From Raillietiella orientalis (taxonomy: Eukaryota): a stretch of DNA of 64,000 nucleotides. Both the position numbers and the translations under genes were made by a program. Positions 3,701-35,249 of the stretch are shown piece after piece. Location of the stretch: contig JAYWIR010000048.1 in assembly GCA_036172245.1 (NCBI GenBank), forward strand, positions 1,054,001 to 1,118,000. Direction: 5' to 3'. How positions within the stretch are numbered: position 1 is the first letter of the stretch; every line of letters begins with the position of its first letter. The notes beneath the pieces were generated by a model, which worked only from the letters and a program-made list of their open reading frames with translations, was not told the origin of the DNA and ran no database searches.

Positions 3701-3731
<31 letters not shown>

Positions 3732-3744
3732 TAGATAGATAGAT

Positions 3745-3775
<31 letters not shown>

Positions 3776-3791
3776 TAGATGTATGTATGTA
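3682..3791. repeat. (TA)n/(TAGA)n/(TATG)n compound microsatellite
   Basis: Read directly from the sequence. Confidence 0.97.
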
Positions 3792-6209: not shown

Positions 6210-6935
6210 TCGCTGCTTTTCGCATCAGCTTCTTTTCTTTCTTTCTTTTTTTGGTTCCCAAGGGGTGCTGAAGAACCGTTCTGCCTCGTCGGGGGGGGCG
6301 GAGCTTCACGGAGCTCTTTACCACTCTCCACGCCACCCGAGCGTGTACTTCTTCAAGTTATAGGGAGCGACCCCGAGAGGAGACGACCCTATGAATCCCG
6401 GAAGACTCCAGAGGAAGGTGCTGGATTCATAGGTTGGCTCCCTCTCTTACGCTTGGAAAGGAACCCTTGCCCTGGTTGTCTCCGAAGGGAACCTCTCCCT
6501 CATTTCTTCTCTGGAGGGACCCCTGGCAAGGAATCCGCTCCCTGTTCCCTCCCCTGAAGAGAATCCCGAAGGCAGCAGCGCTCTTTTGGCACTCTGGAGA
6601 GGCATCATCCAGGTCCTCGGTACGCAATGGAGGTTCCCCTACGAGGAGGGAGGGGACGACCCCCTTTTCCCAATCGGAAGGGGGAACTGGGAACCTCCTG
6701 CATGGTTCCTGGAAGGACCCCGGGGGGTCAACTTCCAATCCCTGCCAGTCAACGGGGTGCATCCGGGGAGTTCCCGGCTTCCACCAGTGCCGCACCCGAA
6801 TGGAGGCCAACGAGCGTCATCTTTCGGAGGGACTCGAAACCGTCCATTTCTCGGCGTGCATTCTTCCCCGGGCGGAATCCGAACCCGCGACGCGTGGTAC
6901 GCCACGAGCGGAGGTCGCAGTCGCGCGGCCGCCGA
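6210..6935 (-). mobile_element. SINE-like element, same family, reverse orientation
   Basis: Reverse-complement motifs CCCTATGAATCC, CCCTGGTTGTCTCCGAAGG, GCGTCATCT, GGAATCCGAACCCGCGAC (B-box like); T-rich tail near 6240. Confidence 0.7.
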
Positions 6936-9785
6936 CCATGTACTCTTGAAGCTGGGAAAGGATTGGAGCGGCTCTCCGGCAGGGGAACCCGGAAGTCTTG
7001 GCACTCGGAGAGCAAGTTCCGTTGGTCTTTCGAATGGATTTCCATGACCGCTACGCCCATCCTCCGAGGAGCGAACCCACCGGATGTGAGTGGCGGAAGT
7101 GAGTGCTTACTGAATGGAGTTGCGTCCCTCACCCCGGATGCCCGCTGTGACCCTGTAAGCGGCCCAGCGAGCAAGTGAGGCGGCTGAGCGAAAGACGAGG
7201 AGCGAAGCGAGCGGAGTCGACACGGAAGTGTTTCGCTGCCTCAAAATAGCGTGTCCTCTGGGCGCCCACACACGCAACCCTTTCCCCCTGATAGCTTTCG
7301 ACAGCCGAAGCGGGAGGAAGCGGCGACTACAGAGCTGGTTATGAATAATTGACGGCGCCATCTTGCGAACGGCCGAGGTCCAGCCCATGGCTTAACAAGA
7401 GACGTTCACCCACGCTTTCCTCGAAGATCCTCTTTTACCCGAAATTTACCCCCCCCCCCCCTTCCCCCAAGAAAAAGCGCCGGAGATTAAGATCAAAAGA
7501 GGACCACGAAACCGAGACGAACCATCAAATATTGATGGAGCGGCGAGGAGTACACAAGCCGTGCGTGATGCCTTCTCGGTGCCTCAGGATTTATTCAACG
7601 CCGCACTCATCCAAAGAATAGCGGAAGATGAATAAATCAATATTGTCTTAGATAATGCGAGTTTGCACACGAGTTCTTTCGGCTGAAAACGCGAAATTTC
7701 GGTGCATAATTCATTGAGCACCAGAAATCACTGTAACAGCGAGCATCTGCATAATGAGTGCTCGTTGCGTAAGCGTCGCTTTGTGCGCGGAGCTCCAATA
7801 CAACAAGCCCGAGACGCCGGATTCCCCGGTAGGCGGGTGGGGTTGCCGTGGGGCCCACGGGAAGAACTGCGAACCGGGAAAGGGTGTTCGGGTCCAGGCA
7901 GGCGGGACGAAGCACCTCAAACAACGATCGGGCGCCACTGCGTCGGGTGTGGTGCAGCGGCCCTTCCCGTTCTTCGAGAGAGCGGGAGGAATGCTCGGGG
8001 ATTTCGGAGAAGCCGAAAGCCGCACCGCGTCCCGGAATATTCCGAACGGGAAACTTCCGGAGCCGAAGGCGGACGCGTGGACATCGAGGTCCTCGGGTGC
8101 GTCCCCTTGGAAACGACCCTAATCCAAGTCTTCCGCGCGCGAGCCACCTCGAACCGTGGGCGGGGGAGGGAGAAGGGAAGGCCAAGCGCTGCTTTCCTGC
8201 TCTGCTGCCCGGGTGCCCCAGCATCCGCCGCTCGCGAGAGGGCCCGAAGCTTTCGGACGCACCCATCCGCGTGCTCTTTAGGACGAGGCGAAAGCAACCG
8301 CAGTGAGCAACTCGTTCTGCCGGATGGCGGAGCGATACCTCCTGAACCTCTCCCGGGGCGACGCTCGTGGTGCCCCGAGCGCCCCATGATGTATCGCTCG
8401 CCCATCCGGAAGCATCTGAACCGCCTGGCGCTCCTAGCAACGGCGCAACCGAAGCGTTTTGCTTTCTCCGCTCGTTTCTGCTGGCTGTACGAGAAAAACC
8501 GGAACGAGCGGTCACGCGGAGTCCGGACAGCCCTTCCAGAGATTCCATGCGTGCTGGCGGGTGCGCTCCAGTGACCGCCGGAACCCCCGCACGTCAGCGA
8601 GCACGTAACGCGCGTGCCAGTCGCAAAGGGCACGCGGGAGGTGGCCGTGCGTTTCCAGGCACCTCCAGGCTGGAATGCTCGTGGTGCGGTTTGCCGTGCA
8701 ACTCTCCGCGGTCACCCTTCGCAACCGTTTCCGAGTGCGGATCAGGCGGCAGCACGGAGCACGGACGAACCGGTGGGTTCACGCGGAGCCTCTTTGAAGC
8801 TCGCAGCATCCAGGAAGAGCTCGCTCGTGCCTTGGGGGGGGTACCCTCCGGCATCGGAGAGTGCGGCGCGCCGTTCCGCCCAAGGATGCGAAAATCAAGC
8901 GGGGGAAATTCATCTTCCGCAGGCTACTCTTTCCCTGGTGCATCCGATTAGCGGCGGCGACTCTTTCGCTGATCTGCATTTCTGGGGGACCAACGAAAGC
9001 CGGTTCGCATCGTTCCTCGGTAACGAGCCACCTCGCTCCTGTGCTTTCCGTCGGGACTTTTGTCTTCCTCCTCTCAGAACTCCCGTCTTTTTATTCTGAT
9101 TTTTTTTTTACGGTTTTTTCAATCTCAGTGCCGATGACTTTCCCCGGTGTCTCGATTTCTTTTTTATGATCTTCCGCAAGGTTTATGGACAAAAATGAAA
9201 CCGAAAAAGTGCAGAGGGGTAATAACTTTACGGCCCCCTGGGCTGTTTATCCAAGCCAGCCCCGTTGTCACAGCAACCGGATCAACGATTCGTTTCCACC
9301 GATCTCCTTCGCGCGAAAGTTTAACGGGCTCGATGTGCCTGCGCTGCGGTTCTTCCTTTCCCGATCCAATTCGGTTCCTGACAAAGGAACTCCGCCTGGA
9401 CCTCTCCATCGCATCCTGCCTTCCACTTGTCCAGACGGCGCCGCAACCCCAGCGACAGTTCTGTAGCCGCAGACCGAGGACAGCCAGGGGATTGCATGAC
9501 CGGTGGAGTGAAGAAGGCGAGACCGACCTCCTCGCGAAATCCGGCTCCTTCAAGTCGCCGAAGACTTGAACTTCCCGAGAACGCAGTCTCCGATCCCAAA
9601 AGAGGAGCTGGGATTCTGCGACTTCCGTCGCCTAAAGCCCCTGAGTTCCTGTGTCTCTCCAGGCGAGACGAGTCCTCGTCTGCCCAGGATTCAGGCATCA
9701 CCAAGCCAGCGTGCGCTTTCCGTAACGCCTCCAAGCTTGCCGCTTGCGCGCGCCCTTAAGATACCCTCCCTTCCCGCGGGCCCTC

Positions 9786-10770
9786 TCCCGGGATCGCCAG
9801 GACAGCCCGCGCGCTTCTCCTCGAGCGGGACAGCCGCCACGCAAAGCGGAAAAACGGGCCGCGGGGATCGCGCCCGCAGGAAAGCGAGGATGGAGGTCTC
9901 GAGCGCCCACGGCACCTCCGCTCGCTCGTCCGTCGCCGCCTCCGCCTTCCGACACAGTCGTCCTCTTCGCTCCCGTTCGCACGCCGGCTGCCGTGACGAC
10001 GACCGCCGTCGCGAGCGCGCGCCTCTCGCACGGTCGTCGTCCGCGCACGGCCGGCCATCGAGCCCGAGCGGTGGCGCGCCGCGTAGCCGCGCACGGGCAA
10101 GGGCACGGGAGCTGGGCAGGAGAAGGCGGAGGGTGCGGGAAGCAGAGGCCACGAAGTTCGTGCTCGGGAGGGGGCTGCTGTCGCCGCGGAGCAGCCTGCT
10201 AGGGAGCAGGGAGGAGGGGGGAAGGGAGGACAAGCGAAGGGCTGGCTGTCCTTGTGCACGCGCGCGCTCCCGGGGAGTTCGCCGCTTTCCGGGCGGAGGG
10301 ACGCCGGCGCTCCGGGATGGATCGGCCCCTCCGCCTGCTCTGCCGCTTCTTCCCTGCCTCCCGCCGCCATCCTCCTTTCCCTCCGTCGTCCGAGCGCGTG
10401 CACGGAGAGCACGCGAGCTGCCGCGGACCGCGTCCCGGGCAGCCGGGCATGCTGCTGCTCCCGCGGACCGAACTGACCAGCGGGAGGCGGCGACGACGGC
10501 GGCGGCAGCGGGAAGCGGAGGAAGAAAAGAAGGGGGGAGCGAGAAGGCTGCGCTCGTCCTCACGGACCGTACCTTCCGCAGAAATTCTCCCTGCTCCCCC
10601 TCCTCGGGAACGCTGGTCGAAGGCGGACCGTCCTCTTCCCCCCGCCCGGCGTCCGTGAGAAGCTCCGCGCCTCCTTCCCGGAGGCCTTGCCCGAGCGGGC
10701 CGCTCGTCCATCACCTGGAGACGGGAGGAAGGAGGAGGCGAAGGAATCGCAATAGGAAGATCGGGGAAAG
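9786..10770 (+). repeat. 985-bp GC-rich segment, copy A of a long inverted repeat (Nav intron after exon 6)
   Basis: Runs TCCCGGGATCGCCAG...GATCGGGGAAAG and is the reverse complement of 28181-29165; overlapping ORF translations in several frames are identical between copies. Confidence 0.97.
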
Positions 10771-12517
10771 GGAGGCAAGGAAAGGCGGTTGGGCGGTTCC
10801 CGTCTTTGGGAACCGCCCAACAGTCTTGGGATGTTCACGCGATGTGAGAGAAGTCCTGGGAAATCTTCGACCCCGCGAGACCCCATTCCGGGGAAGGGCG
10901 ATGGCTCAGGAGGTCTCCGAACGTAGGGCGCTTCCACTTTCGCAGTGAATCCCGAGTTGAGAGCGTTTTGTTCCCGGGACTGGAAAAAACAGGGGAAAGG
11001 GGGACAAGGAAGTCGGGAGACTCTCCCCGCAATCATGGAGGTCTCATCGCTCGTGGTCGCTTCCCCCCTTTCCTCATCTCTCAGGGTTGTGATGCAGCGT
11101 TGGATGAGCAGAAGCTCCCAGCAGTCCCCCGCTGAACTTTCAGCGACGTCGGCGGTGCACGGAACAGTCTCAGGACGGAGGCAAGAGGACACGGGAGCAG
11201 CCAGGGCGTTGGGGAAAGGAGGGGTGTGGAGAGAAGGTGAAACTGACCTCTTACCAAGCGGAGAAAGTCATTCGGAGAAGCGCGCGCCCGACAGGCCCTC
11301 TGACCCCACCTGGGGCGACAGGAAGGGCGGACGTTGGCAGGGCTGCCAGAGCAAGCCAAGTGCATCCCTACTTTTTGGTCTCCGGAGGTGGTGGCTCGAG
11401 AGTCGAAGGCCAGCTGGCTCTGGCCCACGGGTGACCTCCGTCTCCGCCTCCAGCGGGACTGGCAGGAGCGCTTGGCAGGCTGGGAGGATCGTCGCCCCCC
11501 CCCCCCCCTTCCTCTCGTCGCCTCCCGCCGTCGCGAGACGCGCTTGCGGAGACGATCTCTCCGTGCGTGCACAGCGATGTTCCTACACCTCCCCCCCTCG
11601 TCGCGTGCGGTGCTCGAAAGCCATCCGAAAGAAACGCTTGCAAGCCAGGGCGACCGTTCCCTCCGGTCCCGGTCCCGCCAGCCGTGGGGTCGTGGGCAAC
11701 ACCGAATGGAGAGAGCTCCGGCGTGTCCCATTTTCACGGAGGACTGATCCCTGAGACGCGGAGTCTCCTCGGATGGGGGTTGGGGTGTAGGCGGCGCGTT
11801 GCAGGGAGTGTTCCTCCCTTCTTCCCAGTTTCCCTCGTCCGGGGCGCGATCCCAGCGCAGCAGCTGGGAGGAGTCGGTGGGAACGGGAGCGTGAGCCTTC
11901 GCGAAGGGGTCTAGGCTGATGGGGGGAACCACGGCTTCGCGAGAGGCAGCTGCTGCTTTTGCTGCTGGAGTCCTCCGCAAAAGGGAACTCTCCGGCCAGG
12001 CGTCGTCTCCCCACACAGAGGGGGCGAGCAGCTTCCCTACCCTGTTCCTCCTGGAGACGGGGTTGCGAGTGACCACAGCGGCCGCCTTTCGACGCCACGT
12101 ACGACTCCCATCTTCAGCGACAGGAGGGAAGAGTAATGAGAGGCGTCTGATGTGCCGTCGGACCCAGCTTCCGCGTCTGGAAGAGCTGCCCACCTACTTT
12201 GCATCACGGAGTGCTTTCTCGGAGGAAGGATGGGGCAGCTCTTCAGCTGCGCTAACGGCGGCTCCGCGCGAAAGCGGCCCACGGATCTGTGAAGCGTGGG
12301 AGCCCCGCCTGGCGCCGTTCGGAAGCTCCCGGTGATCCTGCTCGGAGATCTTCCTTCACGCAAAGCCGCAACGGGGGCGACCGCTCTGATGCGGGCGCCT
12401 GGGAACCCTTACGCGTGCCTCGAAGCGGAGACTCCACGCCGCCACCACCCGCGAGCGCTCTGTGGACGAGGTGCGCGCGCCATCCGGAAGGAGGGGAAGA
12501 GGGGGAAGTGGACTCAC

Positions 12518-12739
12518 CGGGGTTCTGTGAAAATTCCAGCCAGGTTTCGGAGCTGCTGCTGTTGTCCGCGGGTTCGCTCTCGTTCGGTGAGAACACCCGG
12601 ATGCACTTCTGCGTCAGAACACCCATGTAGATCTGCAGTCCGAGCAGCGCGAAGATGGACAGGGAGAACATGGTCAGGATGATGACGTCCCGCAGGTTTT
12701 TCAGGGATTCGATCACGGCGCCCACGATGGTCTTCAAAC
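12518..12739 (-). CDS. para: Nav channel coding exon 6 (IS4-S5 linker, IS5, start of the extracellular loop)
   Basis: [79 protein letters not shown] acceptor, GTGAGT donor; 222 nt, ends in phase 1. Confidence 0.96.
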
Positions 12740-14799
12740 CTGAAAATGGAAAGTGGGGAAGAAATCGAGGGGGAAGGAGAAGGGAGAGTGTGGCAGGACC
12801 CGTGTGGAAGGGCGAAAGGCTAGCGCGGAGCTCAGAGCCGACCGAGAGCCTTTCGCTGCCGGCGGCCACAGTTCCTCCGCGTTTCCGGTCGCACGTCGCT
12901 GTTTTCAGTAGACCCCGCAGCATCACCTGCCGGGATCAGCTCAGTAGCCACGCTTCCCGAGAAGCGGACGTCGAATTCGTGCTTCCATCGACATGTCCTC
13001 GTTTTTTTGGTCCGGCGCGAACGGTCCAAGGTGGTGGTTCAAAGGACGCCAGCGCTCCGTCTGTCTGCTCACCCCCAGCATCTCGAGATGTTCGAAGTAT
13101 CCAAAGTAGCTTTGCAGGACCGTCCTAAATTTGAGGGAACGGGGTGCTCCTCAGCCGCCCCCTAGCGAGGAGGAGGCAAGACGGTTGTCAGCCATCCCAA
13201 CAGAGCCCGTTCGTTTCCTTTGATCGCCTCAAAGGTCACTTTGCGGACAGGTCCCTGAGAGCTGAACGCTCCCGGTGTCTTGTCGTTCTTCTACGGCGCG
13301 GACGCCCTGAATCCCCTCGTCCTCAGGACGGCGTCCCTGTCTCCGCGTAGCTGTCCAATGCCGTCGGGGAAGCAGTTGGCGAAGAGACTCTGCTCGAATA
13401 AGGCGCCTTTTCCGCTCGGAGCTTGACCACGGAGAGGCCGTGCTCCAGATGCCCAGGCGCTTTAGGATGCCGGTCGTGAAACTTGTCCAGACCCAGGGGG
13501 CCACCCCCAAGCGACGGGGAGAAAGCGAGCCTCCACTTCCGGAGGGGAGGTCAGCCTTCAGCAGCCAGCTGCGGAAGCACGGGTCCAGGTCGAGGTGGTC
13601 GCTCTTCCGCAGCCAGAAGGCTTTCCGTGAGGCGGCGAGTGACAGGCCTCCTCACGGAAAGCGAGGAGCAATCCCCTTTCGTTCTCCCCCCACCCCCACC
13701 CTCCCTCCCCGATCTTCCTTCTCTTTCTGCTACGGGGGCGGAATCACCCGAGCGAAAGGCCTACACGCAGGCTGCACTTGGTCGGAGCCGGTCCGCTCGC
13801 GTCTCCAGGGCAACGGGGAGTCCTCGTCCGGCGGGGCGTGCGCACGCTCTTGTGGTGGGCTGCTCAGCCGGCGTGTTCAGCGAGCAGCACCGACGACAAA
13901 AAATGCTTGGAGAAGGCGCTCGCATCGACCGTTTCCCGGTAACGGCCGGCGCGTAGCCCCGGTCGCGCCCGGTCCAACGCGGGCAGCTGCCAGAGTGCTG
14001 GCACGGGGAGGGCCAGCGCGCTCTTTTCGTGCCGGCGTACTCTCTGAACCGGCCACCATAATTTGCTTCCCTGCTCACCCCCCTCCCCCCTTCCCCCACC
14101 GCGGCCGCTTCGAGGGGAACCCACATACATGCAGGAGGGTTCGTCTTCGGCCGCCTTCACCAGTAGGCTCATGCGCGCAGCCAGCGCTCCACCGTGTGGA
14201 GTTCAGGTTCAGTCGTCCCCCGCACCCTTCTTCGCTCGGGATGAAGGGCGCAGCCCCGGGTACGGACGGGCTGGGATCCGTGCCTTGTGGAGCTGGGATC
14301 ATTTCCTCGAGGGGTGCTCGAGATCGAAATCTGAATGACGCTTGACCTGAGAATTTGCCCCGGCGTTCTTCGCCTCCTCCTCCTCCTCGAGCAGAGTTTG
14401 TTTCTTCCTCCTTTTTTCCCTTTGCTTTGCATCCTCAAAAGGAAGCTTTCTGGAACCGCAAAAGGCGAGGCGTTCGGTCAATCGTGGCCTGCGCGGAAGC
14501 CCTTCCCTCAAACAGATGTCACGGGAAGTCGCAGGGTCCTGCTCTCCTGGATCCCTGGGCACATCGTATCGCCTTCTGGTGCGAGACGCTGATTAAATAC
14601 CCTCTTCGCAGCATCTGTTACTCGTAGGTCGCATGGCTCCCTTAATGAAGTACGCACTCCTTGCATTTGGGGTGCCATCTTGCGCCCACGGCAGTCCGGC
14701 AACAGCGCACTCCTTGATTTAACGGTGGAACGGAACTTGTTGGCGGCAACAGAGAGCAAGGCGGAGGTCAAGGTCAGCATTTGGGGGTTCTCTTCTGCA

Positions 14800-15390
14800 C
14801 AGCCATTTTCCTTCCAGCAGCCTTTTTTTTTTTTTTTGGTTCTCCAAGTACTCAAGGACGAAGCTCTTTGACACTGCTCCACGCCACCCGAAGGTGCGTG
14901 GAATTCTTCAAGATAGGGATCCCCGGGAGAGGATCTCCCTATGAATCCAGGGAGGGCTTGGGATCCCGAAGCGAACCTTCACCCTGGTTGTCTCCGAAAG
15001 GAACCCCGAAAGGAACCACCCCTTCCTTATTCTCTCTGGAGAGACCTCCCGGAAAGGATTGGCTCCTTGTTTCCTCCCCTGGAGGGAACACCCGAATGGA
15101 CGCCCCCGAAGTTTTCTGAAGGGTCGCGTCCGAAGGGAGCAGCGAGCTTCTTGATGCTCTGGAGAGGAGGCATCAACCAAATCAGCTCCATGGTACTCGA
15201 TGGAGGCTTCGCCTTCACAACCTAAGGGGAACCCTCCTTGATTCCTGGAGGAACCGAGGAGGATCGACTTCCAATCCAAGTGCCGCGCCCGACGCCTAGA
15301 GACCAGTCAGCATCACCCATTTCGATTCTGGCATCGATCCTCAGCGTGGGGATTCGAACCCGCAACGCTTGGTACAACACGGTCTCCAAC
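14800..15390 (-). mobile_element. SINE-like element, same family, reverse orientation
   Basis: GGGATTCGAACCCGC (reverse B-box GGTTCGAATCCC) near 15350; CCCTATGAATCC and CCCTGGTTGTCTCCGAAAGG body motifs; poly-T tail at about 14823-14837. Confidence 0.72.
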
Positions 15391-17130
15391 GGAGGGAGAG
15401 AGAGAGGGGGGGGGGGAGCGCGCACGCTAAGAATCGATAACAGAAGAACATGAAGGGAAATCAGGGAACCAGAGCGCCCAAGAAGAGGAGAGGGAAGGCT
15501 CTACAGGAATCCCGGACTCGGCAGGTGACTAACCCTGCCCGCAGCGGCCGAAAACCCTCCCCCTCAAAGGGAGACGAGCGAAAATGGGGGAGCCAAAAAC
15601 TCACGCGAGCCGCAGACCAAACGAACGCCCACTTGATGAATATATGGGGAATGGGGGGGGGGGGGGAAGCGGCGCACGCTCTACTCTCGGGCAAGGCTAT
15701 CTGGAGCGCGCCCGTGGTTAGGAGCATCTCGAGCGCGAGGTCACGCGTCGGATGAGGCGGGACGCCCGAAAGGGTGAGGAGGAGGCGTATGTGAGTGAGT
15801 GAAGACGAATCCCTCCTTGTTCCTTGAGGAGCTGCTTCTTGCGCACCCAACTCGACGTCCAGTTCACTGCTGCTGCTGCTACTCCTCCTCCGGCCTTCGC
15901 GCGAGAGGTGAGACGGAAAGAATGCGGGGAGAAGGACGGTGCGGGATGCGCAGTTTCAAGGAAGATGGGCGTCGTTGTGCGACCGGCGCGGCGTGGATTG
16001 GAAGGAGATGAAGCATTGGGGAGGGAGCAGGGGGAGTCCAAGCAACGTGGGGTCGACCCGCGTTCAGAGTGAGCGTCTCCGAACGAGATGGGGTACGTTC
16101 GTGTCCTGGAAACCGGAACGGGGTCCCCAAAGTGACGGTTCGTCGGCACATCGATCAGAGGAGCATGGCGACGCGCCATTCTCCAAAGCTCCTTCCCGGA
16201 GTCTCAGAACAGATCCAAGAAGAACCACTCGTTTTCTTCTGGCCCACCAGCCGAAACAGGGGTTCTGCCGGAAGCCCTCCTCTTTTCTCATGCCAAAGAG
16301 GATGCTCCCATCTCTGCCCTTCGCGTGATGGCAACGCGTGCGGGTGGGCCCCTCGTCACTCTCTGCTTGCCGCCTGCTACTGTTCGGCGGACTCTCCCCC
16401 GATGAGGACGAAGCGAAAATTTCGGCGTCGTTGCAGAGCCGGAAAAGAAAGAAAGAAAGAAAGAAAAAAAAAACGCTCCTTGTAATTTTCCGTTACTTCC
16501 TTTCCGGCACTCATTTTAATTTCAGTTAATCGGTGACATCCGGATGGGAGCTGCTTTTCCGTGCGGAGCTCACGTAAGGAGAGTCCATCGCACGCCCTCG
16601 CCGTGTCGCCTCTTTGCCGAGCTCCTCCTCCAGCCTGACGGAAGGAGGGACTCTTCGCCGCGTTCTGGACAGGCGGCAGCTCTCGCCGCGGGCGAACGGG
16701 CGCGCTCAAGAGGGAAGCCGGCAGACCGGCGCCCGCCGCAGGGAGGGAAGAAGGCCAGCGGCCCTCCCTCTGTCCGTTGTCGGCGACCCGCGAAGACGGC
16801 GTCTTCCCCGCTTCCTGAACTCTTCCCCGCTTTCCTGCACGCCGTCCGACGGAGGCGCGAAGGGCGAGGGACGTTTCGGCCCTTTCGCTGCTCTCCCAGC
16901 AGGGCCTGGTGGGCGGCTTGCGAGCCGCTGCTGCCCACGTCCGGCAACACCTCCGCGTGTTGTTGCTCTGCCGGCGGCAAGAGAAGACGCGCGCTTCGAT
17001 CGCATGCACGTCCGAGTTTCACTTTGCAAGTCGTCGAGGGACTTGCAAATGGGAGCACGGGTGAAATATTGCGAAAGAACAGGGGGAGGAGGAAGAAGAA
17101 GAAATAAGCAAGTCATTATATTTAAGGTAC

Positions 17131-17222
17131 CTGGGATAATAGCCACCGTTTTCAAGGCTCTCAGAACACGGAATGTCCTCAAAGCTGCAAGGTTGCCTAA
17201 TTCGATACCCATCGTCACGTAA
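17131..17222 (-). CDS. para: Nav channel coding exon 5 (IS3-IS4 voltage sensor)
   Basis: [31 protein letters not shown], the S4 basic-residue repeat; the 92-nt exon size typical of Nav genes; TTTTAG acceptor, GTACCT donor; phases fit exons 4 and 6. Confidence 0.97.
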
Positions 17223-18689
17223 CTAAAATGGAAAAGAAGACAAAGAGGGGGAACACTGGACTTTTTATCAGTTTGCCAAAAAAAAAAAAAAAAGCACGGA
17301 ATAAGTTTCGGGTCATAAAGGAAGACATGTTTACTGAAATGGAGAAGTAATTCCCGAAACACACACTGAAACGAAAAAGAGGGGGAAGGGATTAGAGCGG
17401 GCTCGGTATAGGCAAATGGTCAACGGGAATCCCTCGTGACGGGGGGGATGAATTAGTGTCACGAATTCTGGAGGGAGAGGCAGCCATGGCCGTAAGCATG
17501 CTCGGGGATCTCAGCTTATTAGGGGACTCTGGAAGGAGTGGGCGCTCTCGATTAAAACGCACGGAACGGTCAACGCCGCCTCGAACATCGGGAACGCCGG
17601 AAGATCTGCAGCAGCAAGGTGTGTGTGTGTGTGTGTGTTTCCACATATGCACCGGCGGCGGTGTACGGTGCAAACCTCGTTTTTTTTTTTTTTTTTCCTT
17701 CCTTCCTTCCTTTTTTTTTTTTTTTTTTTTTTCTCTCCTCTCAATCGTGGTTTCCTGCGGCTCCCGACTGCGCTCGGATCTTCTCGGAAGCGCACCGGGA
17801 CGCTGGACCGCGAAAGACGAAGCAGGAAGGCAGGAGGAAGATAAGTGGACTTTGCGTTTCCACCCTCTACGACTACCGTCCACGTGCGTTTTGTGCACGT
17901 CTGTGTTTGTGTTTCACCGCGGAAGTGGGCGGCGACGTGAGGGTGCGGAGGCGCAGACGGAAGGGCATTTCCACGGGCGCAAGTGGCGACCCGTTCGCAG
18001 TTTTCCGGAGCCAGAAGGAGATGAATGACGATGAGAGGCGAGACGACTGCCACTGGCGGTTCTCCCTCTCCGCCTCGTGGCCGCTGAACAAATACGAGCG
18101 GAGGCGCACGAGCAGCACCGCTCGGGCGGTGCACAACGGACGCAGCGGACAACCGAAATCTCTCGTCCACACTCTCTGTGGCGGCGGAAGACATGGGCGG
18201 GGTCTTCTTCGCAGACCCCGCGTCTCCCTGCTGCCATTCTGCGAAAACTCTGTAACCGAGAAAGGCTGTCGAAATGCAACTCGGACCGCAGAAAAATGGG
18301 AGGCTGTCAAGCGATTCCCTGAGATGTCGTGGTCGTTTGTGCTGAGCCCGTGTCAACGTCGAGGCCGTTGTCGGGCGGTTCGAAGTTTCCGGCTTCGTCT
18401 GAGTTGCCTGGAGCGCTTCTAAATCGGGGAACATCTTGAACAGACACGTGAGCATAGCCCTCCAAGAGTTTCCTTCCCTCAAAGCACACCATCTCAGTTA
18501 CCTTGGAAACCATGAGGTGATGCATTGACGGTCCAAGCCTTCCTTAGAGGTGCTCACTCTAAGAAATCTTGCGACCTTTGGCTAAGCGTTTCGTGACATC
18601 TGGATGACCCTGATGTTATAGGACCATGGATTCTTGTTTTGGAATTTTCCTTCTTATCTTGGCTATTCTTCTTTGAACAAAATAAAATA

Positions 18690-19150
18690 AATAAAGCTTC
18701 AGACAGAAAGTAGACTTTGAACGACTTTCCCTCTCTGCATCTGATTGGGGGATCTCAACTTTGAAGCGCCGAAGTTGGTTCGTTCTTCACGCTTCGTGAT
18801 GACCCATACCTTCCACCGTCCAGTTGGAACAGAAGGTTTCTTCGTTAAAGAGCAGCTGTGAAAAGTCACTGCTGGGAGCCAAAAGTCTGTGCGCTTCCGC
18901 GTCCATCGACATGTGTTTCTTCTTGACTGTCCAAGACACACGCTGAGATGCATAATATCGAGAAATTGTTGGCGTGGAGAGACGATGGTGACGGATACGC
19001 TGCCTGCGGATAAGTTGCAAGAAAAGGGTTCGCGACTTGTCTAAAAATCAGAACGTAGAGAACTTCCAAACCGTCCTTCCTGAAGGGGGTCATGGGGGGG
19101 AGTGCTCTGTTATTTTATGTGACCGACTGCAGCTTGGCACCTGCTCGGGA
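18690..19150 (-). mobile_element. Mariner-like transposase remnant (N-terminal half)
   Basis: Frameshifted fragments FRKDGLE, HLSVCLGQSRRNTCRW (cf. LG.RKVCARWVP) and GHHE in the order expected for mariner transposases; local GC drop. Confidence 0.4.
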
Positions 19151-20729
19151 TGGACGACCTCCCAAGCTCGTGTGAACCGATCGATAGCTTCTCGCCGAAT
19201 CTTCTATCGGGGAAATCTTCTACGGGGAACTCTCCTCTCTTACCAGATTTTCACTCGGGCTCTTATCTCATCCCAGGTAGCACACGCCCACTGCGGTCTG
19301 CCCCGTCAGATGCCTTGTTTCTGGATTCCGGGGGAGCCCAACCTCCCTCCGTGATATCCCTGTGCGCGCGGCCATGCCTCGCACTCACGTGAAGGGAGGG
19401 AGTCTCTGCATGTAATTCTTTACTCTCTTATCCTTAAGAAAATCACAAGCAGCGCGAATGAGCCATCATCGTATGCTCTTGCAATTTTTTTACAGTTCTA
19501 TTTATCCTCAAGTAATGCATGGAATGCATTACTTGAAGATGCACGCATAAGATGCGTGAGTGGAGAAGGGAATGGTGTGCGAAGGAGAAGGAGGAATGTT
19601 TTAGAATCACGCGGCACTCTTGAAATTTGTTCATAAAAACATGTTTTTTTTTCTGGAACGTTCGTGGACGCGGCAAACAAATCATCAGCTCGGCTTTCGT
19701 GTGGAATGCGAAGCAAAGCTTTTCGAAGATGGATGCAACGGAAAAGGACAAGAGATACGTGGATATAACTCTTTGAGATGTCGGAGCGAGCGAGCACGCG
19801 AGCCTCCGGTAAATTTGCTTATTGGACGGCAGCACAGGTCAAGCCGAGCGGCGCCTCCCAACCGTGTTTGCATCTTTGCAAAACTTCTTCCGCGCTTCCT
19901 TCCGTGTCTCCGAGATCCTTCAGGGACGTCGGCACTCCCTGCCGCTTTGGAAAATCTGGAGGCGCTGCACGGGAACCTTTCGCTCCCAGATTTTTTCCCG
20001 AAGGAACGGGTGTTCCTTCAAGTGCCTCCGCCGTCCCGCGACTTCGATCAAACGAGCACTCTGTCCAGCTTTTGCCGTCGATTGCCGGGCAGCGTCGGCA
20101 GCTCGACCGGAAAGAACCCAGCGGATTCTGGAAGAATGACCGTGGCAGTGATCTGTCAAAGTCAATAACTGATAACGGCATCAGTCATCTCCCGCAAGGC
20201 TTGAAGGATCGGCTTTCGCCTACGGGTTAGCACAAAGAGGGCGACGCAGCGCGGGCTACAGACAAGAGATCCGTCAACCAGTCGACAAATGCACCGTGGG
20301 AGGAATCCGGGAACGCAACTACTCGTTTACGTCTGCCGCACCTCACCGTCGTTGCATTTCATGAAACATTTTCCAGTAAATCACTTCGTGTTCGCAGCAC
20401 TGCTTAAGAAGGGAGACCTGCGGCGAATGGAATGGAAAAAACAAAAGGGAATAAGAGGAAGCACACGCGAGGAAACCAAAGCGCAGCTTCCCTGGATGCG
20501 AACAGCAGTTCCATCTTCGGAGGGAGGGGCAAGGTGAAAAGAATAAGAACCGACGCTACATCTTCCGGCTGCGAGATCCTCACTCCATGGAGGCGCCAGC
20601 TTAATCACGATTCCTCTACTAACTGCTGATTTGGACGCATGCGTTTCCAGATAACTCGCTCGGACTTCTTATCAACAGACCTCCAGGACCACGGAAGGGA
20701 AACCACAAGAGGAAAGGGTTGATTCGCTA

Positions 20730-21330
20730 TGGGCGATATTATGCTGCAGCAGCTGCCTAGAGGACAGCTGGTCCATTAGCATGGCTGTCGTGAGATGCGG
20801 ATCGCTTCAAGCAGGCGGAGTAGAAGTTCTTACGGCGATCACACCGTTGCAGCAACACGCAGAACTTCGTAAATCATCTCTGCAGACTCCAGGGGGATGA
20901 CTTTATGGAGTGAGCGGCTCTTCGCAGGAATGATGGAAACGCTACCATCCAGAAACTGACGGTGATTGAGCCGCCGCCGTGCCTGAATTCACCAACGTGG
21001 CGCCCGTGACTCTCCCGTCTGAAAGTCACCAGCGAACGAAATAACAGGAGGCCCGTCTTCAGCCATCTCCCTTCCATCTGGAGGGAACAACACGATCTTT
21101 TGCGAGCGGATCGGGAAACTCTTGAACGGGACGCGACTCGACGGTTACCGCAGCGAAAATTTTCCGAGTAATTTGGGAGGAGATGCTTTGAATTCTGTGA
21201 CTGCACTTTCCGGATCCGCTGTTCAAGACTGCGCTTCCCTGAAACCCGATTCGGGAGACGTCGCAATGGGGGACGCCTCGTCACGGAGTAGTTCGCAGAG
21301 CTGTTTGCAAGTCAAAGCTGATGGCTGTCT
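20730..21330 (-). mobile_element. Tc1/mariner-like transposase remnant
   Basis: RHGGGSITVSFW (cf. Tc1 KHGGGSVMVW), LRLLEAIRISR and LLQHNIAH (cf. LHDNARPH) in the expected order. Confidence 0.45.
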
Positions 21331-24300
21331 GCTTCCTTCCGTGTCTTTTCTCTTCCATCTACTTCTTCAGATTGCGTTTAGATTTTCTTTCCTACGGAAG
21401 AGCGCTCTTTCCTGGTGGACGCAGCATCTGCGAGGAAGTCGACCAGGAAGCACGGAGACGGAACCCTTAAAGGAGCGGACCGATTCCCGTCTCGTCAGCA
21501 GCAAGTGACGGACGCTGGCGCATGCTGGACCATGCGGTGCTGTCCGAGACCTAAAACCACAGCAACAGGGGGTCTTGCAGCCTGTCGACAAACAGTGGCC
21601 GCTCGTTCAAAAGGGAGGAGCGCAGCCACGTTCCAGTCAAGGAGCGTGGTGGTCATCCGGAGTCGTCGCCGCTTCGGATGCGACGTGCGGGAGGGGTCTG
21701 CAGGGAGACAGCACTCAACTCGAAAGCATTTCCTGTCCACAGGCAGCTTCATATTCAAGAATGCGGATCGTCCCTCCTCCCCTTCCATATTCAGATCCCC
21801 TCTGACCTGACCTGAGGACACGTGCGTCGCTGTTCTCACTACTCGACTTGGCTTGCAGAGCTAAGAAGGTGAAGGTGCCTTCCCAGCCTGCGTTGCGAGG
21901 AAGTTTTCACACCCTTCCGTGAGCGGAGGATGAGAGAATCGGACGCTGCACTTCGATCGTAGCCGAAAAGGCCGAGAGGAGATGATTGGGCTCTGAAACG
22001 AAGGCAGGCAGTACCCTCGTGGGGGAATGCAAAAGGGTCTCTGCCGCCGAGTAACCTGTTTTCTTGGCAGCAACCCTTGGGAGGGTTGCGAGGTTCGGCG
22101 AAAGGTTTCGCAAGATACAAAGGGAGGCATGCATGTTCCTTCTTGGTGCAAGAACCTTGCCATTTATGAGGAATGGAGAGAGAAGGAACACCGATGCGTT
22201 GAAACCCCAACATGACGACAAGGTCATGGCCCTCTCTGAGGGTTTCTCCTCCGAAGAGATGAAGTTTAATTCAAAGGGGATCGACTGCGTCGCTGCGCGG
22301 AACGATTCTCGAGCCAATGAGTCCTCAGTGACCCAAATTTTCGAGGCTGCTCCTCTACGAGGGTTTCGAGACCTGTCCGAAGGTACGCTCCAGCCTAAAG
22401 GCCTGCCTCCTACAGCACGGCGGTTAAACTACGTTCGTGCGGCATGTTGTCTGGAGCGCCAAGGGTGGCGCATGTCCTTTTCCGGCTGCCTGGTTCAGAA
22501 GGGAACCTGACCCCGCGAAACACCACAGTTCTTCATGCTTCCTGGTCGACTTCTTCGCAGAGGCTGTTGTCTCCCACGGAAAAAGAGCTCTTCCGCTGAT
22601 GGACCAGGTTTACTTCCTCGCAGATTTTCCTTCCTTCCTTTCTTTTTTTCAAAGAGAAACCGATAGAAGGCTATCAGAGTCTATAGAAAAAAATTCGGAC
22701 CTATCCAGAGTTGACGGCCGCATCGGAGTAGCGCCTCGTAGGCGCTTCTTCCGCTGGCGGAGGAAAAATTCCCGCTGGCATGGATCCAGTGCGTGCACAT
22801 GGAACACCGACAGCTCCAGCGGGAAATCGCTGTCCCCTCGCGCGGAGATCCGTGTGGCGGAGTTCCCCTCGAAAGGCGGCAAACGCTCTTTCCCCGCCGT
22901 TCACTTTGTAAGGATGAATGCGTGCGTCCAGCGCACGCACCGCCACACACTCCTGACATGGTCCACCGCTGCATCCAAAAGCCTCCTAGGAAGTGACGAC
23001 GCTCTGAACCCCCTTCCGAAGACACTCGTTTTCTGTCCCGAAAATGCCTCTGTAGTCTTCTTGCGCTCTCAACGCATTCCAATCCTCTTCGATTCTCGCA
23101 TCCTGCGAGGCTCCCTTGAGCCCCCTTTCACGGAGGGTGGGAACAGCGAACGCGTTGTCTTCTGGACGAGGCGGTGAAAGGGACGAAACCAGCCGTGACC
23201 CGCCTGACGCCTGGCCACGCCTGATCGGGACCGCCATTCATCCGGAAGACGATCCAGGCGAGGACGCCAGACACACTTTGTCCTGCAGAGGAATCCCTCG
23301 CGATGGACTCCGGCTTAGGCGCGCAGGCGCGTCTTCGGGATGCGAGCACGTCTTGCAGGATTACTGCGAACTGGAGCACCTGCCTCTGAAGGCGTTCTGG
23401 CTGGCCAAACAGGGGACGCAGCTCGCGGAGTGGCTGACCAAACCGCTGTCTGCGCGAGCAGCGAAGACGGCACCCGGACGCAGAGAAGGAACAAGTTCTC
23501 TTCCCTTCCACAGGACGGACCGTCCGTCCGCGTCGCAACGAACCTGTGGGAGCGACGGCCCGCGCGTTTGGACCGGAAGGAAGAGCTCGCGAAGTCCGGG
23601 CTGGCAGCGTCCACACCACGTTGCCAAATCACTTGGATAGGCGGAAATGGGGACGAACAGGTCACCTAAGGATCGGCAGGAGTGCTCATGCGCTCAGCAC
23701 GCCGCCTGCAAGTCCAAGTTCCCAAGCAAGCCTCGCGGCTTGGCCGAATCGTAGACTGGCGTGTCACGCTGCGGGCGACGAAGTACATCAGTCCAGCGCT
23801 GAAGGAACACTCAGCACGTGAAGCTTGGACGCCAGAAGACGCGGCTGCGCCCGGCGCGTGCTTGGAATGTCGTCCAAGACTTCGACCGGCAAACAAACGC
23901 CGCTCACGAGTGGAAAGCGGCAGCCGGTGGGGTGCCCGAGGGTTATCCTGCCGAAAGAAGCCATTTGCTCTCCCACCATGCAGCCGATGTCCAAGCGGAG
24001 CGACTTCAGGAAAGGTGCTCACCTGAAGTCACTGGAGTGCCCACGCGAATCTAGCTGCCGCTTTAGCCAACCGAGCACAAGAGCGGACTCCAAGATACGA
24101 GCTTTGGTCACTCCGGTCAGTTGCCCTGGAGAATACGCTTTCCGCGGACGTCATCTCGCGACTCGCCCGCATCGTGTCCAAGTTGATCGTTTCGCCGACA
24201 GTCGACCCGCTTGCCGCTGGTCGGGGCAGTGGAGTGCACACGGCCCATTACGCGGCGCGTGGCGCTGCGCGTGCCGCACAGAACGCGCCACCAGCCGTCC

Positions 24301-24776
24301 GGGAGTGCTCGGTTGCCGAAGATGGGTCTGCGGCTCTCCTTCGTCCACAGAGACGCTGGTGGGAAACCTCCTAGGGCGACGACGGCGGCGTCGAAAAATC
24401 TTGAGCGGAGGAGCGCAGCTGCTCAATGCTCTCGGAAACTGCGCGCAGTTCTAGCCGTGGTGGTGGGCCGTTCCTCAACGCAGGAAGAGATGTGCGCTTC
24501 CCCCTTCCTGCTCTGACCAGGGACAGGAGGCACCGGGGAAAGGGGGGGGGGAACCGCAGCCCTCTCAGCTCCCCGTCCCCTATCCGAGCTTCTCGAGAAC
24601 GGGATGACGCCCGAAGGTTTTCCCCGGAGCTAGCGCGGCGGCGGCAGCAGCCGCGAGCGAACCGCCTCTCTGAAGAACGGCGGAGAAGGAATCCGTATCA
24701 TCGCGCGAAAGGGAGAGAAAGGAGTGCGGTAGGACCGGAAAGGGGGGGGGGGCAAGGCTAGGGGAGGATGACTCAC

Positions 24777-24905
24777 GCCACGAGAATCACGATGAAGTCC
24801 AGCCAGTTCCATCCGTCCCTGAGGTAGGTGAACCTCTCCAGGATGAAGCCCCTGGCGCAGATCTTGATGGTCGACTCGAGGGTGTAGATGGTCGTGAAGA
24901 GGATC
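24777..24905 (-). CDS. para: Nav channel coding exon 4 (IS2-IS3)
   Basis: [43 protein letters not shown] with the diagnostic YLRDxWNWLDF motif; TGCAG acceptor, GTGAGT donor; 129 nt. Confidence 0.96.
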
Positions 24906-24959
24906 CTGCAACGCACGGGCGTTCGGGAGGGTACGAGGCCTGCAGGTGGCGCCGCTTAC

Positions 24960-25165
24960 TCGGATGCCTCGGTGACGGGCGTGGTGGGCATGACCATCAG
25001 GAAGCAGTTAATGAGGATGGTGGTGATGATGGTGAGACTGAACAGGAAGTGGGTGAGGATGTAGATGGCGGACCTCCTGATCGGATGGAAGGGGCTCAGC
25101 ACCCACAGGGCGTTGGTCGCACTGAACCGGAAGATGTCCTTCCCCTTGCTGACGACCATGAACGT
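24960..25165 (-). CDS. para: Nav channel coding exon 3 (end of N-terminus and IS1)
   Basis: [72 protein letters not shown] acceptor, GTAAGC donor; 206 nt, ends in phase 2. Confidence 0.96.
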
Positions 25166-26451
25166 CTGGAAGAGCCCCTGAGAGCGCGGGGGGGGGAGGT
25201 TGTGAAGGGGCAGAGGGAGGTCTCCGCGTTCCTCCGCGAGGATGTGCACCGCCCACCACTACCACCCTGGAGCGACCCTCTGCCTTTTCGCTGCCGCCGT
25301 CGCCAGTGACGACTCGTCTGAAACGAAGGGCTGGGGAAAAGGCGAGATGGGAGCGACGGTGACGGTGGTGCCGCATTCCTCGTGAGCGCCCGGCCCGCGA
25401 ACGTCTCCCTCTGGTGGACGGCTATCCCGACAGACCGGGAATCGCCGCCGCAACCTTACGCGGGAAGGCTCCGGCGCCGTCAGCGAGCGAACCTCAGGGA
25501 AAGGGGGAGGGAAGGGAGAGTCTCGGCTGGCCGTTCCCTCCGCCTCCGGAATGTTCCCGCGTCGTCGTCAGGGAGAGTCGAGAGATGTCGAAGGCCGTCC
25601 GCTTCCTGGAAGGGGTCTTCTCTTCTTCCCCACTGACCTTGCGAACCCACTTCACACTCCTCATCCTCGCCAGACGGAGCACTCGAGGAAGAAGAGGAGA
25701 AGCAGCCGCGAGCGTGGCCCCAGCCTCTCCCCCACCCTCCCTCACTAACAAGAGGGCCAGCGCAAGAGCCGAGCGAGAGGTGCGCTCCGCAGCCCCTGGG
25801 GTCGTCTAGAAGGTTGAGAATGAGTTGCGCCGGAAACTGCGACTCTGAATGAGAGGAAGGCGACCCCAAGACCCAGGCAGGAAAGGGGGTGCCAAGGGGA
25901 GGGGGAGGGGATTCTCTCTCCCCTCCGCCTCCACCTCTTTCTCCTCCTGGGATATGAATGGGGGGCAGTAGCACTCCCGGAAGAAGCACTGCGCTGGGCA
26001 AAGGGTCGGGGGTTTTCGGAAAGGGAAGGATCCGAGGGAAGAGGCAGGGAGGGAGGTCGCGGGGAGTCCCTTTCCCGCCCACTCGAGCCGTCCCGGTCTT
26101 CTGGGGCTCCAGGAAGGGCCGTCAGCTCCTTCTCATAGGAGGAGGAGGAGGAGTCCAGAAGTTTCCGGGAAAGTGGAAAGGAAAGAACGCTCTAGGCGGC
26201 GACCCTCTTTCGGGAAGAGAGCATCCTCGGGACTCCTCTTCTCGGGAGAGCCGGGTCCCCGGCGCACGGGTGCATCCCTGGGAAGCCCTCCCCGTCTTCT
26301 TTCCCCCTCCCCTCCCTCCCGGCCTTCTTCCTTTCCTCGTCTGGAGCGCATTCTGAGGTGCCGTGCGGACAGCGCAAGGAAGGGAGAGGCAGTGGCACAG
26401 CGGGAAGACGGCGGCGAGGGGTCCAGGAGGGAGAGGTGGAGGAGAAACTAC

Positions 26452-26607
26452 CATCTTGTCGCTATAGTAGCCGTCGATGTCCTCCACGGGGATCGAGCTT
26501 AGCTCCATGGGGAACTCAGCCGCTAGTCCTGCGGGAAGAGGCATCCCCTGCTCCAGATCGGGGTTGGGCTGGGGTCCGTCGTCCTCGTCGTCTTCCTCGT
26601 ACCGGAT
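26452..26607 (-). CDS. para: Nav channel coding exon 2 (N-terminal cytoplasmic domain)
   Basis: [52 protein letters not shown] matches para [21 protein letters not shown]...PLEDIDPYY. CAG acceptor after a pyrimidine tract, GTAGTT donor; 156 nt. Confidence 0.93.
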
Positions 26608-28180
26608 CTGCGGAACAGAGTGTGGAAAGACGAAGAAGAAGGAGAAGAAAGCGCCATCAGCCCGGAATGGGGAAGACGAGAGAGCGAGGGGGGAAAGAGA
26701 TACACAACTCCCCCCTATACCTTTACCCGACTTACCCCCCGGACGACGGTCTTGAATCTCTCAGCTCCTCCCGCCCCTTCCAGTCAGCCTTCCCGCTGCG
26801 GGCGTGCAGGGAGGCGAGGATGGGTGGGGTCTGCGGGTCCTTTCCATCGTCCTCTTCCTCCCTCCTTTTTCTCCCCGCTCCCTCGCTCTTCCCCGGTCCA
26901 ACCCCACCCTCCACGTCCTCCCCTCTGGCAGTGCCCTTCCCCGGCTGGGCGCCGATGTCTGGCCGGGGAAGGTGACTGCCCGGAGAGAAGCCACACAGGA
27001 GAAGGCGAGAAGATCGGGAGACCCGCGGCTCCGGGGGGGAGAATGGCGAAGGGACTCCAGACTTCTCTGGAGGGCCTTTCCTCTTTGCCAAGTGGGGAAG
27101 ACTCGCAGGGAGGCGGGCCGGGATTCAGGGGGAAGAGGAGGGGACACGCTTTGCTAGGTGACTTGACAGCCCTTTCGATCTCTTTGGGCCGCTGCCACGG
27201 CTCGAGGGACGGGGCACTCCATGAGCGTCCTCTGTCCCGGGCGGATGAAGTCGATGGCGAACTCCTCCCCTTCCAATGCCGTAAGGCCAAACCCTGGAAG
27301 GAAGACTCCAGGGATCGCATGGGTCCAGCGGGTGCCGTCCACGCCGGACCCATGCGCTTTTGCCAACAGAGGAGATGGAGAATGGAGAGTCTCCTTTCCT
27401 CCCCTCCCCAACCTTTTCCGCTGGAGAATTTTCAGGGTCTCGAAAAGGGGCGGAGGCACTCGGCGCTACCCCGACGTCCAGGGAGCGAGCGAGCCAAATC
27501 TTCCCGGAAAACCTTTCGGACGCGAGGAAGGGAGCAAGCAATTCCCGGTCTCCGGTGCGTCTCCTCGCTTCTCTCCTCCTCTCCCACTCCCAGCGTCCCT
27601 CTAGGGGCACTGTCCCGTCCCGGAAGGGGGAAGGAAGAGTCTTGAGAGGATAATCCCCGAGGAGACTCCCTTCCCTTCATCCCGGAAGGACCTTCGCGCG
27701 CCGCCCCTCCGGCAAGCCGGAATGATCGCGGACGCCGACGCGGGGTTGCAGCGGACTCTTCGGGGAGGACTCCCTTCCCGCCCCGTTACCTTGTCACCAG
27801 CGTGAGAGGCGGTGTAGCTGGGATCCCACCGCGTGACCCCCTCCCGCTTCCTCCCGCCAAGAGGAAGAGGAACGTCCCTGGAGACTCGCGTCTCGCAGGA
27901 CCGTTTTCAGGGAGAGCAACCCAACCCGCGTTTCCCGCTTACAAGGGGAAGCAGCACGGCGCCTTCCGGGACCGTCTCCCGTGGGAAGAGCGTGAGGCCC
28001 TGAAGGAGGCTCCTAGGAGCACAGGCTCTGCGTCGGGACGGGGCAGTGTCGCAGCGACGGCCTTGGAAAATGCGGGTCGAATTCCCGGAAAACTTAAGGA
28101 TGGGCGGAGCCAGGAGTAGAAAACCGGGACACTCTCCCCCTCCCTCCCCATCCTCCAGCGTGTCGAGAACATTCGCATTG

Positions 28181-29165
28181 CTTTCCCCGATCTTCCTATT
28201 GCGATTCCTTCGCCTCCTCCTTCCTCCCGTCTCCAGGTGATGGACGAGCGGCCCGCTCGGGCAAGGCCTCCGGGAAGGAGGCGCGGAGCTTCTCACGGAC
28301 GCCGGGCGGGGGGAAGAGGACGGTCCGCCTTCGACCAGCGTTCCCGAGGAGGGGGAGCAGGGAGAATTTCTGCGGAAGGTACGGTCCGTGAGGACGAGCG
28401 CAGCCTTCTCGCTCCCCCCTTCTTTTCTTCCTCCGCTTCCCGCTGCCGCCGCCGTCGTCGCCGCCTCCCGCTGGTCAGTTCGGTCCGCGGGAGCAGCAGC
28501 ATGCCCGGCTGCCCGGGACGCGGTCCGCGGCAGCTCGCGTGCTCTCCGTGCACGCGCTCGGACGACGGAGGGAAAGGAGGATGGCGGCGGGAGGCAGGGA
28601 AGAAGCGGCAGAGCAGGCGGAGGGGCCGATCCATCCCGGAGCGCCGGCGTCCCTCCGCCCGGAAAGCGGCGAACTCCCCGGGAGCGCGCGCGTGCACAAG
28701 GACAGCCAGCCCTTCGCTTGTCCTCCCTTCCCCCCTCCTCCCTGCTCCCTAGCAGGCTGCTCCGCGGCGACAGCAGCCCCCTCCCGAGCACGAACTTCGT
28801 GGCCTCTGCTTCCCGCACCCTCCGCCTTCTCCTGCCCAGCTCCCGTGCCCTTGCCCGTGCGCGGCTACGCGGCGCGCCACCGCTCGGGCTCGATGGCCGG
28901 CCGTGCGCGGACGACGACCGTGCGAGAGGCGCGCGCTCGCGACGGCGGTCGTCGTCACGGCAGCCGGCGTGCGAACGGGAGCGAAGAGGACGACTGTGTC
29001 GGAAGGCGGAGGCGGCGACGGACGAGCGAGCGGAGGTGCCGTGGGCGCTCGAGACCTCCATCCTCGCTTTCCTGCGGGCGCGATCCCCGCGGCCCGTTTT
29101 TCCGCTTTGCGTGGCGGCTGTCCCGCTCGAGGAGAAGCGCGCGGGCTGTCCTGGCGATCCCGGGA
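28181..29165 (-). repeat. 985-bp GC-rich segment, copy B of a long inverted repeat (Nav intron between coding exons 1 and 2)
   Basis: Runs CTTTCCCCGATC...CTGGCGATCCCGGGA; same length as copy A; similarity stops abruptly at both ends. Confidence 0.97.
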
Positions 29166-34542: not shown

Positions 34543-35249
34543 CCTCGTGGGGCCTCTAGCTCTGCGGCAGTTCCCTCGCTCTTTGAGATCCCTGGACCGG
34601 AACGTGCGAAAGGCGTGCATAAGTCACCAGCAACGTGCACCCGAGACTCGGCGGTCCTGCAGGCTGCGGCCTTCCCCAGCCTGGAGGACAGGAGCCGATC
34701 CCGTGGGTGTTGAAATATTCAAGATGGACGGGAGGCGGAGAGGGGCGCCGCGCATACTCACGGGCAAGGCGGCCGGAGACGCAGTGTTTCCTCCCGTCGC
34801 CCAGTGCACGGACTTCCGATCACTTCCGCAGGCCGGCGGCGGCGCCTCCCATCTCACCGGCGCCACATGATCGTCACTCCCGGGGCGGGAGGAGCGGTTC
34901 CGAACGCGGCGGCAGCATCTCCTGCTCTCCTTGTCTTTCCGGCGGCGCTCGAGGACTCCTCGGAGGCTGTGCGGCGAGGATTCCGAGCGCGGAAGGGTTG
35001 GTCGCGGAATACGAGGATAGGGCACGGCATCCTCGTTCCCGTACCCGTGTAGACGGCAGCGATACCCCTGCGCTTTTTTGCTTCAAAACTATGAAACTGA
35101 TTTGATCAGACGTGATGAAAAAATTCCGCGCTTATTTTCCCTCGTCTGGTGACGTCACGCGATCGATACCTCCCCGGCTTTTTAGTGCCTTTTGATAAAT
35201 GTGTTGCATATTTGTTTCGATGCTGGGACGCGCATGGCGCAGCCCCGCA

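Follow-up and report, generated by a model that had tools for sequence, protein, structure and literature searches.

A perfect 985-nt inverted repeat around exons 2–6 of a para-type sodium channel gene of Raillietiella orientalis, possibly a young duplication with incidental consequences

Does a perfect inverted repeat of almost one kilobase that brackets five exons of a sodium channel gene act on that gene, or is it a recent by-product of DNA copying? The question is raised by a stretch of 64,000 nucleotides (nt) from Raillietiella orientalis (GenBank assembly GCA_036172245.1, contig JAYWIR010000048.1, positions 1,054,001 to 1,118,000 of the forward strand), in the following called the window and numbered from its first letter, in which a 985-nt unit occurs twice, once in each orientation, within separate introns of a para-type voltage-gated sodium channel gene. 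After our analysis, we tentatively lean towards a real, young inverted duplication, i.e., a very recent, GC-rich, non-coding sequence present in two copies in the window, whose consequences for the gene would be incidental.

The repeat search revealed arm A at 9786–10770, defining the plus orientation of the unit, and arm B at 28181–29165 in minus orientation, with 17,410 nt between them. Both are 985 nt long and 100% complementary; the initial annotation had described equal-length, perfect reverse complements at these positions, and direct string comparison proved the match to be exact. An inverted match of this length and precision cannot have arisen by chance. When the unit, extended by 500 nt in both directions, was compared with the 64-kb window via BLAST (word size 9, E ≤ 1e-3), the only matches were the two arms and a local hairpin of 46 nt outside arm A, so that no diverged or partial relative of the unit was found across the window. 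Likewise, each of the four 1.5-kb flanks matched itself alone within the window, apart from small local palindromes. The edges of the arms are sharp: at either end, complete identity gives way at once to no detectable similarity, and the sequences flanking one arm are unrelated to those flanking the other. Apart from microsatellites, the next-longest inverted pairs in the window are 84–93 nt long with 74–89% identity, and the remaining pairs, whether inverted or direct, consist of microsatellites or of short repeats (63–166 nt) with 71–92% identity, in line with the earlier statement that other repeats here are clearly diverged. The hairpin beside arm A (10782–10827) lies 12 nt beyond its right edge, consists of a 20-nt stem (90% complementary) and a 6-nt loop, and has no counterpart at arm B.

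A motif scan and tblastn analysis with three arthropod para proteins identified the host as a para-type voltage-gated sodium channel gene on the minus strand. Coding exon 1 (30942–30808, 135 nt) begins with an ATG at 30942 and is followed by intron 1 (30807–26608, 4,200 nt), exon 2 (26607–26452, 156 nt), exon 3 with S1 of domain I (25165–24960, 206 nt), exon 4 with S2–S3 (24905–24777, 129 nt), exon 5 with S4 (17222–17131, 92 nt), and exon 6 (12739–12518, 222 nt), which harbors a match to the Pfam family Ion_trans. GT donors were present on all six exons and AG acceptors on exons 2–6, and the joined exons 1–6 gave an open product of 313 amino acids (aa), collinear with residues 5–313 of a moth para protein (66% identity, E 1.9e-142), so that homology covers the para N-terminus and S1–S5 of domain I. 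A search with exon 3 resulted in 83 protein matches, 76 of which were arthropod-type para relatives with 67–79% identity, the other seven having lower query coverage or being vertebrate channels at 56%. A search of positions 1–12600 with five para proteins (residues 291–700) did not detect exon 7 (no match to the pore loop, best E 0.03); intron 6, of which 12517–1 is contained in the window, is therefore longer than 12.5 kb and continues beyond the left edge. In regard to composition, the introns around exon 5 (17001–23000) displayed a GC content of 0.51–0.56, compared with 0.62–0.70 in the rest of the gene region. A possible decayed channel pseudo-exon beside arm B (29605–29387), suggested by one moth query (E 1.25e-4), was not reproduced with exons 2 and 3 of the window as protein or DNA queries and was dismissed as a chance match.

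In this gene, arm B is located in intron 1, 1,642 nt past the donor of exon 1 and 1,574 nt ahead of the acceptor of exon 2, and arm A presumably in intron 6, starting 1,747 nt past the donor of exon 6 in transcript order and predicted to read in the pre-mRNA as the reverse complement of the unit. Thus, exons 2–6 are flanked on both sides by introns with reverse-complementary arms, the arrangement known from back-splicing pairs, and the window repeat search found no competing complementary pair in these two introns. The gene model agrees with the initial annotation, which had placed one copy between coding exons 1 and 2 and the other after exon 6. The spliced model also reproduced the further details given there, namely a would-be back-splice donor at 12518, an acceptor at 26607, a total of 805 nt for exons 2–6 (156 + 206 + 129 + 92 + 222), and a frameshift upon skipping, since 805 is 1 modulo 3 and not divisible by three.

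The unit itself revealed a GC content of 0.719, which is reached by just 0.2% of 985-nt segments. At either site, no other kilobase of the window is as rich in GC, and GC rises by about 0.1 at all four arm edges. Its observed/expected (o/e) ratio for CpG is 1.12. Since this ratio is about 0.8–1.1 window-wide, the description of the unit as very GC- and CpG-rich stands for GC, while its CpG content merely follows from it. The window as a whole has a GC content of about 59%, which together with a CpG o/e near 1 is unusual for an arthropod genome.

Several searches were directed at the class of the unit, for which the absence of a transposase or reverse transcriptase (RT) motif, of clear terminal inverted repeats (TIRs), and of a target-site duplication (TSD) had been noted from the bare sequence; all three absences were borne out. 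The best local alignment between the start of the unit and its reverse-complemented end covered 9 nt, i.e., no TIR, and no TSD of 3–12 nt was found within 3 nt of the junctions of either arm, so that the unit showed neither of the two features of a TIR DNA transposon or miniature inverted-repeat transposable element. A TIR-like pair at 9765–9778 and 10762–10775 (14 nt, 86%) was attributed to chance, since 2 kb of GC-rich sequence here yields 15 pairs of this type in all. The termini read TCCC...AAAG, with flanking bases C and G at arm A and T and C at arm B, and microhomology at the junctions does not exceed 1 nt. Helitrons start with TC, end with CTRR behind a subterminal hairpin, and insert between A and T; the 5' TC is present here, but the AAAG end and the flanking bases do not fit. 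Long terminal repeat (LTR) elements, including solo LTRs, have TG...CA termini and TSDs of 4–6 nt, and were rejected since both are missing. A non-LTR retroposon or short interspersed element (SINE) was likewise rejected because of the lack of an A-rich or simple-repeat tail at either end, of a TSD, and of an RT domain in seven ORFs.

On the protein level, none of seven open reading frames (ORFs) across the unit matched a Pfam family at E ≤ 1, and thus no RT or transposase domain was found among them; these seven include six of the seven arm A ORFs of at least 150 aa, with the ORF at 9701–10198 (minus strand) and six mirroring ORFs of arm B left out. All six frames are rich in Arg, Pro, Ala, Gly, and Ser, resembling translated GC-rich non-coding DNA, and for an ORF reading through the unit (327 aa), 8,000 candidates were scored without a homolog at E ≤ 0.001. 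A search of 9000–31500 against Rfam resulted in 13 weak matches, none at the gathering score. The best of them, RsmY (38.6 bits compared with the required 57), belongs to a bacterial family and straddles the edge of arm A, and was regarded as chance. Finally, an exact 25-mer from the 3' end of the unit had no match in metagenome and prokaryote genome collections, which would seldom include this animal, and a plasmid collection searched in distant mode contained no match to the unit. Judging from these searches, bacterial or vector contamination as the source of the unit is not supported.

How, then, could two identical copies have come to lie 17 kb apart? The most probable origin is copying at the DNA level, either by repair of a break from a nearby ectopic template or by a template switch during replication, both of which would leave neither a TSD nor element termini; compared with it, transposition appears less likely. 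Based on zero differences in 985 nt, we infer a 95% upper bound on the age of about 3/(2 × 985 × 3e-9), or roughly 5e5 generations, assuming the rate of 3e-9 mutations per site per generation known from flies, a value not measured in this animal. The copy would be too young for shaping by selection, which makes an evolved regulatory role unlikely. Which of the two arms is the original is touched on by a 20-nt motif across the right edge of arm A (10763–10782) that recurs with 90% identity 229 nt downstream, giving a weak hint that arm A may lie in its native context. Inverted duplicates of non-repetitive sequence without hallmarks of transposable elements are also known to bracket chromosomal segments at Drosophila inversion breakpoints, where, in the account of Ranz et al. 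(2007, PMC1885836), staggered breaks allow a single inversion to leave such duplicates at its ends. The model implies an inverted segment between the duplicates, whereas exons 2–6 here still run in line with exon 1, on its strand and in sequence, and form an open, collinear product with it. A single staggered-break inversion was rejected on these grounds.

Even as a young duplication, the pair might affect the transcript. In the pre-mRNA, arm B would precede arm A by 17.4 kb of transcription, so any transcript still retaining intron 1 when intron 6 is made could pair its arms as a perfect 985-bp duplex. Computed folding energies amount to -2520 kcal/mol for this duplex versus about -529 kcal/mol for each arm folded alone. 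Pairing would place the donor of exon 6 (12518) beside the acceptor of exon 2 (26607), and such intronic complementarity would favor an 805-nt circle of exons 2–6 or, as an alternative outcome, an out-of-frame join of exon 1 to exon 7, each at the cost of channel mRNA. In addition, the duplex would serve as a substrate for ADAR and Dicer, and on the DNA level homologous recombination between the arms would invert exons 2–6 and break the gene. All of these effects would be by-products, and it is plausible that back-splicing, skipping, editing, or dicing occurs to some extent.

Several points weigh against an incidental duplication with such by-products. With respect to its origin, the GC steps at the four edges and the extreme composition at both sites look more like a module foreign to both places, e.g., an interspersed element, and with at most 1 nt of junction microhomology, a template switch is left without positive support. 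The search for orthologous loci, performed with a peptide pattern in metagenome data, matched 372 stretches, 56 of which encode a relative, most on short contigs. No close relative was among these 56 loci, none exceeding 78% amino-acid identity in an exon that is highly conserved, and the unit gave five short matches (29–45 nt, 80–86%) in three of the 56, all in its low-complexity, GGC/GAC-rich tract. With respect to the RNA, exon 7 lies outside the window, so the transcription of arm A as part of the para-like gene is presumed from the collinear exons 1–6. Furthermore, the acceptor of intron 1 is transcribed 15.8 kb before arm A (26607 to 10770). In fly S2 cells, the median intron half-life is 1.9 min, with first introns at least 50% longer, and an elongation range of 1–3 kb/min has been considered (PMC5762160). 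Extrapolated from these fly cell values to the present animal, 15.8 kb would correspond to about 5–16 min, so that most transcripts may lose arm B before arm A exists; for a half-life of 3 min, our own arithmetic suggests that roughly 3–30% would still carry arm B. Splicing can excise intron 1 while the polymerase is still 15.8 kb short of the second arm, which weakens the case for efficient pairing in cis.

The alternative that survives best, though we consider it rather unlikely, is that the arms are independent insertions of a young interspersed element, or a fragment of one with fixed length, of low divergence and without canonical hallmarks, their placement around exons 2–6 being a coincidence. 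The identical 985-nt extent and sharp edges of both arms would be expected of it, as would a GC content about 0.1 above all four flanks, and recently active families typically show identical copies. Retroelements have left at least one remnant elsewhere in the window, recognized by its match to RVT_1 (55881–56597). Yet none of the termini and duplications by which such elements are recognized was found, from TIRs, TSDs of 3–12 nt, and Helitron-like ends to TG...CA ends and A-rich or microsatellite tails, no RT or transposase domain was detected in the seven ORFs, and not a single older or partial copy occurs within 64 kb. The absence of the terminal 25-mer from the metagenome and prokaryote collections points in the same direction, although these would rarely include this animal.

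Less probable still, and in our view unlikely, is an assembly artefact in which one arm results from a repeat node used twice or from a wrong patch. Duplication by software would yield just what is seen, namely arms that are perfectly identical, end abruptly, and lack hallmarks of insertion. However, the window is free of N and continuous through microsatellites and a T run of 53 nt (17680–17732), from which we infer an assembly of the long-read type, which would easily span a 1-kb repeat. Each of the four flanks of the arms is a unique sequence of its own, and the gene between and around them is intact and collinear. Known fold-back artefacts of long reads are adjacent palindromes, not arms 17 kb apart. 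The assembly is presumably correct at both arms.

The initial annotation had suggested that the duplex could tune channel dosage through a circular RNA (circRNA) or a skipped transcript, or that recombination could inactivate this part of the gene. As a functional reading, the arms would form a working regulator of channel dosage, by way of an abundant circRNA of exons 2–6, a frameshifting skip, hyper-editing, or small interfering RNAs (siRNAs), or a recombination switch. To act in the animal in this way, the pair would have to divert a sizeable share of para transcripts into the circle or the frameshifted skip and feed ADAR or Dicer, or flip the DNA and thereby knock out the channel in some cells or individuals, and judging from the sequence we regard either as very improbable. 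The arms do lie within 1.6–1.7 kb of the splice sites to be joined with no competing pair in these introns, the duplex is far more stable than the fold of a single arm, and intronic inverted repeats are described as driving circularisation in flies (Kramer et al. 2015, PMC4617980). Against this, zero differences and the lack of decayed margins suggest a pair too young for an evolved function, the 15.8-kb kinetic gap applies here as well, and inversion would destroy the gene, the assembled orientation being that of the intact gene. According to the same study, many exons with flanking complementary repeats fail to circularise. A literature search, too shallow to claim absence, revealed no circRNA of para or another sodium channel gene by title or abstract.

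By its arrangement, the repeat pair belongs to a known kind, that of complementary intron pairs flanking exons. The closest likeness is found in Drosophila laccase2, an arthropod gene with reverse-complementary sequences (DNAREP1_DM) in both flanking introns, for which Kramer et al. report that pairing of the inverted intronic repeats is necessary for back-splicing, that about 100 nt per side are enough, and that long repeats (~400 nt) act co-transcriptionally (PMC4617980). As given there, the laccase2 repeats are recognisable transposons, 69–75% identical over 106–272 nt and close to a single exon, and those around exon 2 are not conserved between species. In contrast, the present pair is 100% identical over 985 nt, lies 1.6–1.7 kb from the splice sites, and encloses five exons together with 16.6 kb of introns, any circle from it being hypothetical. 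Human Alu pairs, as summarized in the same text (PMC4617980), resemble it in that intronic complementarity joins a downstream donor to an upstream acceptor, but they derive from a high-copy SINE family with many competing pairs, whereas the arms described here are a single pair without a family in the window. A further likeness exists to Drosophila hairpin RNA (hpRNA) loci, which give rise to endogenous siRNAs, and to ADAR substrates, in that a long, perfect intramolecular duplex could form within an RNA polymerase II transcript. Loci of the hpRNA type have short loops and dedicated non-coding transcripts, while the loop of the present pair would be 17.4 kb long and carry coding exons.

Finally, the annotation had read the identity of the arms as recent duplication or ongoing conversion, and of these we favor the former, since the least probable explanation of all, an old inverted repeat whose arms have been homogenised by persistent gene conversion, could draw on 985 nt of identity at 17-kb spacing as a good substrate for intrachromosomal conversion, but conversion tracts seldom reach the ends of repeats, so that old pairs have diverged margins, whereas here identity drops abruptly from 100% to undetectable in BLAST (word size 9, E ≤ 1e-3) and no diverged margin exists.

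Apart from the channel gene and the unit, the window contains few recognizable features. Pfam analysis of its other 150 ORFs of at least 150 aa resulted in two with a family match, one being the Ion_trans match in exon 6 and the other a stop-free ORF of 239 aa on the plus strand (55881–56597) with similarity to RVT_1 (E 2.4e-13). The latter represents the retroelement remnant mentioned above, is located upstream of the channel gene, and showed no sequence similarity to the 985-nt unit in BLAST. Also upstream of the gene, two diverged local repeats were found, a 166-nt direct pair (35247–35412 and 35662–35827, 92%) and an 84-nt inverted pair (35823–35906 and 39471–39554, 89%). A sharp AT-rich island at 60001–61000 has a GC content of 0.188 compared with the window average of about 0.59; beyond it come microsatellites of the types (TC)n and (TA)n (61016–61110). 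The (TA)n tract there, near 61 kb, was paired by the repeat search with a (TA)n/(GATA)n microsatellite at 3662–3804, a similarity of simple sequence alone.

Arthropods have one main sodium-channel gene, para, at which major insecticides such as pyrethroids and dichlorodiphenyltrichloroethane (DDT) are directed. If the pair is a young neutral duplication or a mis-assembly, its importance would lie only in the caution it advises for annotating this locus. If it is active in the animal, it would offer a structural handle on the dosage of an insecticide-target sodium channel. A perfect inverted repeat of about a kilobase around the first transmembrane exons would be an unusually clean natural test case, bearing both on the extent to which a transcript essential to neurons is lost to circles or dead-end isoforms through a long duplex in its introns and on how frequently inverted repeats flip segments of genes.

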